64,000 nt of DNA from an uncultured Bacilli bacterium. GTDB taxonomy: Bacteria > Bacillota_I > Bacilli_A > RF39 > UBA660. The notes below the pieces were generated by a model. The model saw nothing but the letters and a program-made list of their open reading frames with translations, had not been told where the DNA came from and did no database searches. The stretch is from the NCBI GenBank assembly GCA_934153945.1, contig CAKPFM010000001.1, forward strand, positions 72,128 through 136,127. Direction: 5' to 3'. The position numbers were made by a program, and so were the translations under genes. Below are positions 29,962-47,110 of this stretch, piece after piece; the first letter of the stretch is position 1; every line of letters starts with the position of its first letter.

Positions 29962-30038
29962 GTCCTCGTAGCTCATCGGGATAGAGCAAAAGTTTCCTAA
30001 ACTTTAGGTGGTAGGTTCGAGTCCTATCGGGGACGCCA
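29962..30038 (+). tRNA. tRNA-Arg, anticodon CCT
   Basis: Manual cloverleaf fold: acceptor GTCCTCG/CGGGGAC, D arm GCTC..GAGC, anticodon arm AAAGT-TTCCTAA-ACTTT, T arm GTAGG-TTCGAGT-CCTAT, then discriminator G and encoded CCA. Confidence 0.85.
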
Positions 30039-37219: not shown

Positions 37220-37819
37220 ATGTCTAAAGTTTCAAATACAATAACATTATTAAATTTATTAGCAAGTGGTAAAAAATATAATATAAATGAATTAGCTGAT
37301 ATTCTAGAAGTAACACCTAGAATGGTTAGAATATATAAAGATGAATTAGAAAAGTCTGGAATATATATAGATACTATTATGGGACCATACGGAGGATATG
37401 TTTTAAATCAACAGATAAGAATTCCATATAGAAAATTCAAAACAGAAGATTATAAAATGTTAGATAAATATATTAAAGAAGAAACAAATGAAGAATTAAA
37501 AAATAAACTAATTTTATTACAAGATAAAATTAGAGGAATATATATTGGAAGTAAATCCGAAAGTAAAGAACTTAATTTGGAAAAAGAAACATTAAATAAA
37601 TACAATATTTTAACTAGAGCAATAAAAGAACATAGAAAGGTAAAAATTACTTATTATTCTTATAATAAAGGAGAAAATGAAAGAATAATAAATCCTATAG
37701 AAATGTTTTTATATAATACTGGATGGTTTTGTGCTGCATATTGTAATTTAAGATGTGACATGAGACATTTTGAATTAAAAAGAATAAGAAAAATAGAATT
37801 ATTAGAAGAAAAATTTTAA
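37220..37819 (+). CDS. WYL-domain transcriptional regulator with N-terminal HTH (YafY/BrxR/CapW-like architecture)
   Basis: N-terminal HTH (ITLLNLLASGKKYNINELADILEVTPRMVRIYKDELEKSGIYI). C-terminus ..KVKITYYSYNKGENERIINPIEMFLYNTGWFCAAYCNLRCDMRHFELKRIRKIE fits the WYL domain pattern. Confidence 0.7.
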   Translation: MSKVSNTITLLNLLASGKKYNINELADILEVTPRMVRIYKDELEKSGIYIDTIMGPYGGYVLNQQIRIPYRKFKTEDYKMLDKYIKEETNEELKNKLILLQDKIRGIYIGSKSESKELNLEKETLNKYNILTRAIKEHRKVKITYYSYNKGENERIINPIEMFLYNTGWFCAAYCNLRCDMRHFELKRIRKIELLEEKF

Positions 37820-37870
37820 GTTGACAACATATTACCTACTCAAGTAGTAATATCTACTTGGAGGTGTTTT

Positions 37871-38785
37871 ATGGAAGAAAATTTTAAACTTTTATTTGAT
37901 AGAATAATTGATACATTAGAAACAACAGATTTAATTAAAATCAAAAATCAATTAGAAAATATAAAAGGTAATACAGTTTTTGTAGGATCAGGTGGTTCTA
38001 AAGTAGTAGCTACTTTCGCATCTAAAATACTAAACGGGTCAAATGTAAAAAGTTCAAGAGATTTAAATTATATGGGCCTAAATAATATAGATAATATAAT
38101 GATATTTAGTTATAGTGGAATAGGTTATACAATAGAAAATTTATTAAAAAATAACAAAAAAATATATTTGTTTACTAATGGAAATAGGGAATATGAAAAT
38201 GTAGAAAATATAAAATATAACTCATCACTAAAAAGTGAACATAGTTTTATTTCATTAGCTAGCACACTTATGCCAATGACAATTTTATACAATTATTATA
38301 AAAATTTAGAAATTAATCATCTTAAATTAATTTTAAATGATATGTTTGAAAAAGCAAAAAATATAAATATTGAAAGCAATAATGTATATGAAATATTAAC
38401 AGGATATGATACTTTAACTGCTTCTACTTATTTAGAAAGTACAATGGTTGAATCTGGTATAGCTGTTCCAATTATCCATGATAAATATGATTATTGTCAT
38501 GGTAGAACAACTACATCATATAAATCACACAATGGTTTAATATATTATGAAAATACAAAAGAATTAGATAAACTTTTGCTAGAAAATTTAAGTAAATATT
38601 ATACTGAAATAATTAAAATAGAAAAGTATTATAGTGATGATTTTGTAATTGACAATGATTATTATGCAACAATAAAATCGATGTATTTAACTAAAAAATT
38701 AGCTGAAAATAAACAAATAGATTTATCGAAAATAGAATATTCACCTCTTGTAAAAAAATTATACTATTTTAAAGGAGAAATGTAA
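37871..38785 (+). CDS. SIS (sugar isomerase/phosphosugar-binding) domain protein, 304 aa
   Basis: Motifs GNTVFVGSGGSKVVATFASKIL (GxGxSxxxA) and DNIMIFSYSGIGYT (ISxSGxT). These fit the SIS fold better than a SIR2 fold. Confidence 0.55.
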   Translation: MEENFKLLFDRIIDTLETTDLIKIKNQLENIKGNTVFVGSGGSKVVATFASKILNGSNVKSSRDLNYMGLNNIDNIMIFSYSGIGYTIENLLKNNKKIYLFTNGNREYENVENIKYNSSLKSEHSFISLASTLMPMTILYNYYKNLEINHLKLILNDMFEKAKNINIESNNVYEILTGYDTLTASTYLESTMVESGIAVPIIHDKYDYCHGRTTTSYKSHNGLIYYENTKELDKLLLENLSKYYTEIIKIEKYYSDDFVIDNDYYATIKSMYLTKKLAENKQIDLSKIEYSPLVKKLYYFKGEM

Positions 38786-38787
38786 TT

Positions 38788-39384
38788 ATGGTAACATATG
38801 TAACAGGAAATTATGGTAAATATATATCAGTAAAAGAAAAATTTGAAAAATATAATATAGATATAAATTATTATAAATGTGATATTGATGAATTAAATAT
38901 TAATGATATAGAAAAAATAAGCAAAGATAAAGCTAGACAAGCTTATTTAAAATTAAATTCACCAGTATTTGTAGTAGATTCAGGATTTTATATTAGAAGT
39001 TATCCAAATAATCCAAATTATCCTGGAGCATTTGTTAAAAGATCTGGGGTAGCTAAAAATGTAGAAGAGTTATTAAATATTATGAGAGATGTTAAAGATA
39101 GATATTGTTTTTTCCTAGATTGTTTGACTTACTATGATGGAGAAAATTATAAAACTTTTTATGGTAAAAGTGAAGGATTTTTGTCATATGAAGTAAAGGG
39201 TAATGATTTAGTACAAGCCAAATCAAATTTATGGAAAGTATTTATTCCTAAAAATTATGATAAAACTTTAGCTGAAATGACTGAAGATGAAAGAAAAAAT
39301 AGGGGAGAAATAGGCGCTACTGAAAAGTTTATTAATTGGTATAAAGAAAATTTAAATGCTAAAAATTTAGTATTAAAAAAATAA
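38788..39384 (+). CDS. HAM1/RdgB-family (ITPase-fold) non-canonical NTP pyrophosphatase-like protein, divergent
   Basis: N-terminal YVTGNYGKYISVKEKFEKY (TGNxGK..E), VVDSGF, RYCFFLDCLTYYDGE and LAEMTEDERKNRGEIG follow the HAM1 family order. Starts 3 nt after the SIS gene stop. Confidence 0.5.
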   Translation: MVTYVTGNYGKYISVKEKFEKYNIDINYYKCDIDELNINDIEKISKDKARQAYLKLNSPVFVVDSGFYIRSYPNNPNYPGAFVKRSGVAKNVEELLNIMRDVKDRYCFFLDCLTYYDGENYKTFYGKSEGFLSYEVKGNDLVQAKSNLWKVFIPKNYDKTLAEMTEDERKNRGEIGATEKFINWYKENLNAKNLVLKK

Positions 39385-39398
39385 AAATATATGAAATA

Positions 39399-39540
39399 TT
39401 GAAAAAAATTTAAATATATGTTAATATGTATTTAGCAAGCAGTCTTGCATAAAATAAAAAAGGGAACATTCAATTGTGCATGTTGAGTGATTGCCTATAT
39501 AGGTTTCACCTAAATCATTGCTGAGTTAGGTGATTTTTCA
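39399..39540 (+). ncRNA. candidate small RNA 'A': consensus sigma-A promoter plus a ~105-nt transcript ending in a terminator that abuts the 3' end of peptide 2
   Basis: TTGAAA-N17-TAATAT (39399..39427). Terminator hairpin CACCTAA..TTAGGTG plus ATTTTT (39507..39538). No ORF. The 5' ~110 bp is duplicated at 39777..39890 (start of locus B). Confidence 0.45.
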
Positions 39541-39543
39541 TAT

Positions 39544-39627
39544 TTAGATTAAAACTATAAATAGTAATAATACTAATAGGAAGATAAGAATTACTAAAGC
39601 AAAGATTAAAAAATCTTTCTTGTTCAT
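39544..39627 (-). CDS. small hydrophobic peptide (27 aa, MNKKDFLIFALVILIFLLVLLLFIVLI), paralog of 31695..31787 and candidate type I toxin-like peptide
   Basis: GGGAGG SD 8 nt upstream of ATG. A CUUCU-AAAA-AGAAG hairpin abuts the SD. The 5' coding region is conserved with peptide 1 at the nucleotide level. Not in the ORF track. Confidence 0.55.
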   Translation of the reverse strand: MNKKDFLIFALVILIFLLVLLLFIVLI

Positions 39628-39795
39628 AATATCGCCTCCCTTCTTTTTAGAAGTTTGGCAAATCACCCAACTATTAAATGTCCCTATAAATAATATATCA
39701 AACATATATTCGTATATCAAGTAGTTTTATTAAATTTATAAAATTTAGTTTTAATAAAGTAATAATATTGTAAAATGATAAAAATATATGAAATA

Positions 39796-39938
39796 TTGAA
39801 AAAATTTTAAATATATGTTAATATGTATTTAGCAAGTAATTTTGCATAAAATAAAAAAGAGGAACATTCAATGTTGCAAGTGAATGTTGCCTCACAAAAG
39901 TGTGTGACACTCTACAAATGCAGGGTGTCTATTTTTTT
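39796..39938 (+). ncRNA. candidate small RNA 'B', second copy of the promoter plus 5' segment of sRNA A with its own terminator
   Basis: TTGAAA-N17-TAATAT (39796..39824). Transcript 5' end is ~85% identical to sRNA A. Terminator GACAC..GTGTC plus TATTTTTTT (39906..39938). Its 3' end is convergent with the gene at 39989..40933. Confidence 0.4.
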
Positions 39939-39988
39939 GTTAATACCATTATTGTTTAGCATGAAATATATAGCACATTTTCATTTTA

Positions 39989-40933
39989 TTAAAATTTACT
40001 TTTTCTATAAACTAATATTGAATCATTTATTGTACTATCTTTAAATTTTATTCCATCAACACCTATGAATGAAAGCAATTGTGGATTATATTCTTGCAAT
40101 ATTTCAAAAGTTTTTTCTAGATTATATATTGGTTTCCAATCTGGGTGGTATGGAGTGTTTCTATCAGTTTTGTATAAATAACTAATAAGAAGTAACCCAT
40201 TATTATTTAAATTTTTTGATATATTATCTATCATTATTTTTAAAAAATGTCTCGAAATATATGTTCCAATATTTGATAACCATATTGAATCAAATTGTTT
40301 ATTCATTTTTACTTTAAATACATCGTCAGTAATAAATTCTAATTTTGTTTTTTTTATTTTTGCTTTTGTTTCGTCATATAATATATCGCTTTGCAAATAA
40401 GGATTGCATCCTACTATCACATCTATTTTATTTTCGTCAGAATAAAATAATTCTTCTCGTATATTCAATCCCTTAAAGTTTGAAAATAATTCATCCCAAA
40501 ATAAATAAGATTCATAATCTAATAATCTTAAAGTAGATATGATTCTTTTATAAATGTCATTATTAAAAACAAATTTATTATTTCTAAATGTTTTATATTT
40601 ATAACTTAAAAATTCTAAAAATTCATTTTTACTTAATTCAAGTAAACAACTTATTTTTAAATAAATATAAAATTTTGCATATGGACAAATATCTAAACAA
40701 GTTACATTTTGACAATCAAATAAACTTGCATTTATAATTTGGTCACCAGATGCTCCAACAGTTAATAATGTTCCATTAGATAAATTAAAATTGTTTATAT
40801 AACCTGCAATATTTTCTGTCGTAAAAGGATAGAGCAATTGAAACTCTTTAGCAATATCTTCTACAAACATCCCATTACATTTATTGATTGCATTCATCAA
40901 AAGTATTTCAAAATTTGAATCTTTTTTATACAT
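39989..40933 (-). CDS. hypothetical protein, 314 aa, possibly a SAM-binding DUF3419/BtaA-like fold
   Basis: Long minus-strand ORF. Segment LLTVGASGDQIINASLFDCQNVTCLDICP loosely resembles a methyltransferase-like motif I. Low-confidence family call. Confidence 0.5.
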   Translation of the reverse strand: MYKKDSNFEILLMNAINKCNGMFVEDIAKEFQLLYPFTTENIAGYINNFNLSNGTLLTVGASGDQIINASLFDCQNVTCLDICPYAKFYIYLKISCLLELSKNEFLEFLSYKYKTFRNNKFVFNNDIYKRIISTLRLLDYESYLFWDELFSNFKGLNIREELFYSDENKIDVIVGCNPYLQSDILYDETKAKIKKTKLEFITDDVFKVKMNKQFDSIWLSNIGTYISRHFLKIMIDNISKNLNNNGLLLISYLYKTDRNTPYHPDWKPIYNLEKTFEILQEYNPQLLSFIGVDGIKFKDSTINDSILVYRKSKF

Positions 40934-47036: not shown

Positions 47037-47110
47037 GCAGATGTAGTTTAATGGTAGAACCTCAGCCTTCCAAGCTGACTGCGTGAGTTCGATTCTCATC
47101 ATCTGCTCCA
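47037..47110 (+). tRNA. tRNA-Gly, anticodon TCC
   Basis: Manual fold: acceptor GCAGATG/CATCTGC, D arm GTTT..GAAC, anticodon arm TCAGC-CTTCCAA-GCTGA, T arm GTGAG-TTCGATT-CTCAT, then discriminator T and CCA. Confidence 0.85.

Follow-up and report, generated by a model that had tools for sequence, protein, structure and literature searches.

A probable type I toxin-antitoxin cassette of an uncatalogued family in the chromosomes of uncultured gut Bacilli

[quoted passage not shown] It lies in a 64,000-nucleotide stretch of DNA from an uncultured gut bacterium of the Bacilli, "Tenericutes"-like in character (the window), in which a plus-strand gene for a small structured RNA (sRNA), the putative antitoxin, converges on a minus-strand gene for a 27-aa hydrophobic peptide, the putative toxin. 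An earlier note made from the same DNA had proposed a type I module with the convergent, 3'-overlapping layout of txpA/RatA and bsrG/SR4. Set against comparative data, both the class and the layout appear to hold, as judged from the co-occurrence of the two genes, their mobility, their tandem repetition, decay that strikes only the toxin, and a predicted bsrG-like mRNA. Positions 37220-39384 of the window carry a tight co-directional block of three genes, coding for a 199-aa WYL/HTH regulator, a protein of 304 aa without annotation and a 198-aa Ham1-like NTP pyrophosphatase; the block is conserved in relatives (L017; neighbour clusters c0 and c1).

The peptide gene, MNKKDFLIFALVILIFLLVLLLFIVLI, occupies 39627..39544 of the minus strand, with its ATG at 39627-39625 and its TAA at 39546-39544, five bases beyond the T-run that closes the sRNA on the opposite strand, and it is preceded by the Shine-Dalgarno (SD) sequence GGGAGG (39640..39635) behind a CUUCU-AAAA-AGAAG hairpin; reading frame, stop codon and leader are all as the earlier note had described them. 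Residues 6-27 are hydrophobic without exception, and the peptide, being shorter than 70 aa with at least 10 hydrophobic residues in 15, is a candidate transmembrane protein, a pattern shared by its 30-aa homologues. Two types can be distinguished: type A, to which the window peptide belongs, with 25-29 aa, the beginning MNKKDFLI… and the ending …FIVLI, and type B, with 30 aa, the beginning MKTKTFI… or MKKRTFI… and the ending …IKK or …IKI. The C-terminal cluster of polar, charged or aromatic residues that is common, if not universal, in type I toxins was not found, the charged residues standing at the N-terminus instead (MNKKD, MKTK). For nine type A ORFs pN/pS was 0.25 in the coding frame, where the two other frames gave 0.46 and 1.99, and for 18 type B ORFs it was 0.33, with the wrong frames of both types ranging from 0.46 to 1.99; insertions and deletions within the ORF come in threes. 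These patterns indicate that the peptide is translated and under purifying selection.

The possibility, raised in the earlier note, that the peptide is part of a longer conserved protein in relatives was not borne out, since it is always 25-30 aa long with a conserved start, SD and stop, and the longer versions in databases are gene-caller extensions that translate the 5'UTR. A toxin-first search of 5.8 billion proteins, with an alignment led by such 43-aa versions from an upstream ATG, returned 55 unannotated homologues; on contigs of the window type no gene is called at the cassette. The peptide matches no type I toxin model in Pfam or NCBIfam at E-values up to 10, and type B has a weak NCBIfam resemblance to MgtR (E = 0.13). 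Several type B homologues (in L076, L077, L082 and L083; P0050 and P0014, also P0016, P0027 and P0048) are recorded with Trp at what is a TGA stop in translation table 11, so that some source pipelines must have used code 4; if the hosts truly read UGA as Trp, those type B toxins would be 4-20 residues longer.

The sRNA gene of the cassette (unit 1) has a plus-strand promoter at 39399..39427, made up of the -35 element TTGAAA (39399-39404), a 17-nt spacer and the -10 element TAATAT (39422-39427); the earlier note had picked out the same TTGAAA-N17-TAATAT, to which a TG extension of the -10 element can now be added. Transcription is predicted to start at about 39434 and to give an RNA of ~106-108 nt (39434..39539, both ends predicted) with three hairpins: SL1 (39435-39448), then an invariant A-rich linker (39449-39461), SL2 (39461-39496), and the terminator SL3 (39507-39532), whose CACCTAA...TTAGGTG arms and T-run (T5, 39534-39538) also agree with the earlier reading. 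Its further claim of ~105 nt free of ORFs is likewise sound, no plus-strand ORF of at least 20 aa being present before the terminator. A promoter scan of this AT-rich region returned 22 promoter-like sites against ~16 expected, so the promoter match by itself is weak evidence. Taken whole, the element stands far above chance, because it recurs elsewhere (70 copies), its promoter position is conserved and its hairpins show compensatory changes. Of 56 distinct upstream regions, 43 have a correctly placed promoter with at least 9 of 12 matches, in 42 cases with the TG; after shuffling 1 of 56 has one.

Unit 1 has a fold z-score of -2.7 and is matched by the family covariance model at 39433-39539 with 89.7 bits. 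Rfam has no match to the sRNA at gathering score, and a permissive search gave chance-level matches only (Qrr, frnS, EF0408_EF0409 and others; E 0.6-7, far below gathering scores); elsewhere in the window Rfam identifies an L10 ribosomal-protein leader and two tRNA genes (1996-2113, 29962-30035, 47037-47107). A coding role for the sRNA was considered and rejected: unit 1 holds only a 16-aa ORF beginning with TTG, the ORF of a second unit (below) has an SD and an ATG but crosses the terminator and in the L006 locus stops after two codons, and neither ORF is conserved.

Alignment of the sRNAs and of the 5'UTRs with MAFFT and RNAalifold recovered invariant cores only, because variable stems were misregistered, and was replaced by per-sequence folds, covariance-model realignment and shuffled controls. 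Folded one by one, nearly all family members form three hairpins. Pairs form in 88.1% of the structure cells of the model-based alignment, a share that drops to 33-42% when the partners are slid; double-sided changes affect 19 of 30 pairs (11.6 in shuffles) and compensatory changes 177 cells (55 in shuffles), and none of these measures was reached by any of 500 shuffles, statistics that are inflated by the fitting of the alignment to the model structure and by the phylogenetic relatedness of the members. In the terminator stem all 11 pairs covary. The strand on which selection acts can be read from SL2, whose predicted stability averages -11.0 kcal/mol over the family in the sRNA sense and -6.7 in the antisense (-11.0 and -2.4 in unit 1), because its G.U pairs turn into A.C mismatches in the antisense; a hairpin stable only in the sRNA sense argues for selection on the plus-strand RNA. 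The sRNA thus appears, from its comparative record, to be a selected, structured and transcribed unit, the A-rich linker and the 5' half being nearly invariant across the family.

On the minus strand, the peptide mRNA has a promoter of its own that the earlier note had missed (39692..39720; -35 TTGATA at 39720..39715, a 17-nt spacer and a TG-extended -10 TATATT at 39697..39692), from which transcription is predicted to start at about 39685. The position of this TGnTATAAT element is conserved in 21 of 31 distinct members and in 2 of 31 after shuffling, and among 35 non-redundant modules the conserved minus-strand features are the promoter, the 5' end of the mRNA, the anti-SD/SD hairpin and the ORF. 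The 5' end, AGGGACAUUUAAUAGUUGGGUGAUUUGCC (39657..39685), is a same-sense, loop-less near-copy of SL2; in the family it reads AGGAACAUUUrAU, followed by an element that tracks the 3' arm of SL2 and differs from it mainly by C-to-U and A-to-G changes. Since the 3' end of the same mRNA carries the antisense of SL2, this near-copy is complementary to it, G.U wobbles included. SL3 was also tried as the model for the 5'UTR; the resemblance is partial, the match to SL2 is better and more consistent, and duplex predictions place the partner at antisense SL2.

Two blocks to premature translation are predicted to act in cis, namely pairing of the 5' end with the 3' end and an anti-SD hairpin, GCC-AAA-CUUCU-AAAA-AGAAG-GGA-GGC (39634..39659), which includes the SD. 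The predicted probability that the SD is unpaired is 0.16 in the native context against 0.54 with the upstream sequence shuffled, and it is the lower of the two in 26 of 26 modules. In predicted folds of the full-length mRNA, 29 of 30 modules form a 5'-3' helix of 24-27 bp, and the cognate 5'-3' duplex has a mean energy of -33.1 kcal/mol, compared with -28.3 for non-cognate and -13.1 for shuffled pairings (0 of 5000 permutations); for L066, whose 5'UTR is near-identical to that of the window, the predicted duplex with its own 3'UTR has -31.6 kcal/mol.

The mRNA 3'UTR would extend over 39449..39543 (minus strand), taking in antisense SL3, antisense SL2 and a U-run, and thereby overlap the sRNA. 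This U-run is the complement of the sRNA's A-rich linker, is invariant in all 30 modules (8-9 T in 10) and is the only terminator-like site past the peptide stop codon, and the mRNA is likely to end there, near 39450-39455. Both the 3' end and the extent of overlap are tentative, since the local hairpin of type A is weak (-2.4 kcal/mol in the window), and the overlap in the window is deduced from the mRNA having no terminator before it enters the sRNA region. The peptide ORF of type A does not itself reach the sRNA; in type B its last codons lie opposite the U-run of the sRNA and are complementary to it. When the 3'UTR was masked, predicted SD accessibility fell in ~18 modules and rose in ~8, an inconsistency that gives no ground for claiming a translational effect of sRNA binding such as SR4 has. 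For pairing of the A-rich linker with the U-rich beginning of the ORF, inspection by eye gave only ~7 A-U pairs of low complexity.

A scan of metagenomes located the conserved sRNA core in 51 loci, and the covariance model placed 70 copies (63 distinct) in the window and the loci assembled, all from Bacilli-like organisms of gut metagenomes; it found no copy in 16 syntenic Ham1 loci of related species. Strain-level contigs (L001-L005) are identical across the module, and in a species whose Ham1-like protein is 62% identical (L017) an sRNA like the second unit converges on a 30-aa ORF, MKTKTFIVKVLKLIAIILLLSTLLVLAIKK, at a different chromosomal position. Spacing is fixed in most loci, with the ORF stop at +85 to +100 nt and its start at ~+180 nt from the sRNA core. 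In the toxin-first direction a convergent sRNA is present in 11 of the 11 loci with downstream sequence and a toxin without sRNA in none (a small sample, 8 distinct proteins), from which the pairing of sRNA and peptide appears obligate. The cassette occurs in ~30 unrelated neighbourhoods (95 neighbour clusters, few of them shared) and in tandem arrays of two (the window, L049, L075, L036, L040 and L047) or three (L079), an intergenic, multi-copy arrangement overlooked by gene callers such as type I systems tend to show. Its distribution points to a mobile cassette. Its neighbours are housekeeping genes, not prophages, and no copy was found in annotated plasmids, phages (50,697 phage records) or viral contigs.

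Some loci have features of their own. At L079:2200-3090 three sRNA copies, two with toxins and one without, lie within ~900 bp; the neighbouring genes on that contig, SMC_N and GTP1_OBG, are split into fragments, and the arrangement may come from a frameshift-rich assembly and not from biology. One cassette adjoins a reverse-transcriptase (RVT_1) gene (L082:2970-3923) and another an IS605 OrfB/TnpB gene (L078:1-339), so that the family is now and then associated with mobile elements.

Decay of the toxin beside a full-length sRNA is frequent, with a dead or missing toxin in ~13 of ~55 distinct evaluable copies. In the species-representative MAG CAKOWF01 (L006:4646-4933) the cassette is ~99% identical to that of the window, and the sole substitution in its ORF gives the toxin an ATT start in place of ATG, which looks like a natural knock-down. 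Elsewhere the toxin carries a nonsense codon (L034), is truncated (L039, L049 and L060) or is frameshifted (L063). At L054:3724-3829 a clean deletion has removed the ORF. Its end points are two copies of GACACTC, one in the sRNA terminator and the other in the mRNA 5'UTR, and this recombination between repeats internal to the cassette has left the sRNA directly fused to the toxin's 5'UTR and promoter.

This record bears on a different reading, in which the peptide is a small membrane protein without toxicity, perhaps an accessory or regulatory subunit, and the RNA antisense to it tunes its mRNA in cis; the locus would then be a small gene under ordinary antisense control rather than an addiction or toxin module. 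The toxic role is presumed, type A has none of the charged C-terminus typical of many toxins, the faint likeness of type B to MgtR recalls benign small membrane proteins that look like toxins, and purifying selection is expected of any functional small protein. Against this, no conserved partner gene accompanies the peptide across its unrelated neighbourhoods, presence or absence between close relatives together with tandem amplification would be unusual for a housekeeping accessory protein, the ORF has been inactivated repeatedly and independently while the antisense RNA was kept, and a translation doubly locked by SD hairpin and 5'-3' helix, as predicted here, is characteristic of toxin mRNAs. 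We therefore consider a benign peptide unlikely.

The window itself offers a case of toxin loss in a second sRNA gene, missed by the earlier note, that is an orphan paralogue of the first. This unit 2 (39796..39939, plus strand) has its promoter at 39796-39824 and an RNA at 39831-39939, with SL1 at 39832-39845, SL2 at 39859-39893 and a terminator SL3 at 39906-39929 followed by a T-run. It shares with unit 1 the order of 5' hairpin, A-rich linker, middle hairpin and terminator, and the two derive from a duplication in which 39374-39462 and 39771-39859, 397 nt apart, are 93% identical over 89 nt. Its fold z-score is -4.2 and its covariance-model match spans 39830-39936 at 89.9 bits. Opposite its terminator, at 39929..39955 on the minus strand, lies the C-terminal remnant of a type B toxin (…TIMVLTKK*) stripped of start codon, SD and 5'UTR; the equivalent remnant in L006, TITILAIKK*, matches the type B ending …LLVLAIKK*, and among the sRNAs those found with 30-aa type B toxins are the nearest to unit 2. 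Unit 2 accordingly reads, on this comparison, as an orphan antitoxin that remained after its type B toxin was lost.

Unit 2 also converges on a DUF3419-like gene of the minus strand (39989-40933) and faces the 3' end of that gene, downstream of which antisense SL2 and the U-run of unit 2 form the sole terminator-like element; unit 2 may supply the terminator of that gene while being antisense to its 3'UTR, and the same arrangement recurs in L006 and L066. The sRNA might be mainly a trans-acting regulator, or a terminator or 3'UTR-antisense element for its neighbours, with the link to the peptide secondary. Roughly one copy in four is an orphan whose promoter and structure are intact, unit 2 offers the DUF3419-like gene its only candidate terminator, and the A-rich linker and 5' half are held nearly invariant, all of which would fit such a role. 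However, the orphans retain recognisable toxin remnants at the expected position and are therefore derived from complete cassettes, the linker's invariance is explained by its being the complement of the mRNA U-tract, the toxin was never found without the sRNA (0 of 11), and the neighbouring genes differ in nearly every locus, so that this role is decidedly improbable as the main one.

Least credible of all is a non-functional miniature repeat of the MITE or REP kind, its hairpins and ORF incidental to a ~330-bp unit that is multi-copy, variably located and rich in hairpins, with IS605/TnpB beside one copy and a deletion between internal repeats in another, for such a repeat would not account for the frame-specific purifying selection on the ORF, the two correctly placed and conserved promoters, or the compensatory stem substitutions and strand-specific G.U pairs, and no flanking terminal inverted repeats or target-site duplications are present.

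The cassette probably acts in the manner of bsrG/SR4, as follows. Transcription of the minus strand from about 39685 to near 39452 would yield an mRNA of ~235 nt. The 27-aa peptide that it encodes, presumed to be the toxin, would lie in the membrane as a single helix, and its translation would stay low throughout because the SD is kept in the local anti-SD hairpin. The first ~28 nt of this mRNA are predicted to pair with the last ~35 nt in a closing helix of ~25 bp, equivalent to helix P1 of bsrG, and closing helix and anti-SD hairpin together should make the primary transcript stable and poorly translated. The presumed antitoxin, an sRNA of ~108 nt with three hairpins, would be transcribed from the plus strand under its strong extended -10 promoter, and its sequence matches the final ~85-95 nt of the toxin mRNA with perfect complementarity. 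SL2 would serve as a better-pairing mimic of the mRNA 5' end, so that binding of the sRNA displaces that end from the closing helix and creates a long duplex; RNase III could then attack this duplex and so bring about decay of the mRNA, as in bsrG/SR4 and txpA/RatA.

We put forward tentatively, as a minority view of our own, that the antitoxin acts mainly by molecular mimicry of the mRNA 5' end by SL2 and not by simple antisense occlusion, and that orphan sRNAs have been exapted. SL2 would pair with the 3' strand of the closing helix in Watson-Crick-perfect fashion, whereas the mRNA 5' end pairs with it only through G.U-weakened pairs, so the sRNA should out-compete the 5' end for that strand; and because the same strand doubles as the mRNA's terminator hairpin, the 5' end could be needed for termination. 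Were this so, orphan sRNAs such as unit 2 would have become terminators and antisense regulators of their unrelated neighbours, here of the DUF3419-like gene.

Type I systems are hard to find because their toxins are tiny and their antitoxins are RNAs, and almost all catalogued families come from cultured Proteobacteria and Firmicutes. The present cassette leaves the current understanding of these systems unchanged. What it contributes is a clearly bounded family in uncultured gut Bacilli whose genomes are small, for which two types of toxin and a covariance model are now described, together with about 55 peptides that deserve an annotation they lack. Toxin knock-outs occur in this family as a series made by nature, the predicted mRNA architecture is like that of bsrG and arose without any homology between the sequences, and at ~330 bp the cassette is compact enough for testing how 5'-3' mRNA locks and 3'-overlapping antitoxins cooperate.

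In comparison with known systems, the cassette appears to agree with the operational description of type I toxin-antitoxin loci by Fozo et al. 2010, which asks for a small toxin of <70 aa with a predicted transmembrane stretch, in all but the polar C-terminus, from which type A departs; the candidate antitoxin is encoded in cis, is antisense to the mRNA and has a promoter and a terminator of its own, its overlap with the mRNA in the window being deduced from the sequence. Indirect support for a toxic peptide whose synthesis the sRNA would prevent comes from the repeated inactivation of the toxin alone and from the finding of no toxin that lacks the sRNA. No description of this toxin or sRNA family was found in the literature searched. 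With hok/Sok and aapA1/IsoA1 of Gram-negative bacteria it shares the predicted locking of the full-length mRNA by a 5'-3' interaction and by SD sequestration, but the antitoxin here pairs at the 3' end and there is no sequence relationship. It resembles fst/RNAII, the par system of Enterococcus faecalis, and the Fst/Ldr superfamily in its Gram-positive host, its convergent transcription towards a shared terminator region, its membrane peptide of ~30 aa and its 5' mRNA structure limiting translation. In par, sRNA and mRNA interact through direct repeats at their 5' ends, outside the overlap, whereas the element common to both RNAs here (GGAACAUUyrAU…) is same-sense and not complementary; unlike that of par, the terminator is not bidirectional, antisense SL3 being followed by AAACC and no U-run, and the peptide has neither the Fst signature nor a match to Pfam Fst_toxin.

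The closest parallels are bsrG/SR4, bsrE/SR5 and txpA/RatA of B. subtilis. The toxins BsrG, BsrE and TxpA and the antitoxins RatA, SR4 and SR5 have no sequence similarity to the peptide or sRNA in Pfam, NCBIfam or Rfam; the toxins here are shorter (25-30 aa against 38-59 aa), as are the sRNAs (~108 nt against ~180-220 nt), and unlike that group the cassette lies outside prophages, among housekeeping genes of uncultured gut Bacilli. Structure probing of the bsrG mRNA has shown nt 1-35 paired with nt 232-262 in helix P1 and the SD within a stem of 4 bp; SR4, whose sequence is complementary to the 3' end of that mRNA, works by way of RNase III and by sequestering the SD. A difference here is that the terminator-proximal hairpin itself provides the 3' strand of the closing helix, no separate terminator stem-loop being present. 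As in the B. subtilis systems, however, the genes converge, the antitoxin folds into several hairpins, ends in a terminator of its own and is antisense to the 3' part of the toxin mRNA, and the toxin is small and hydrophobic, and as in bsrG a long 5'-3' closing helix is predicted together with an SD held in a short local stem. By these likenesses the cassette would stand as a previously uncatalogued family within the known type I kind.
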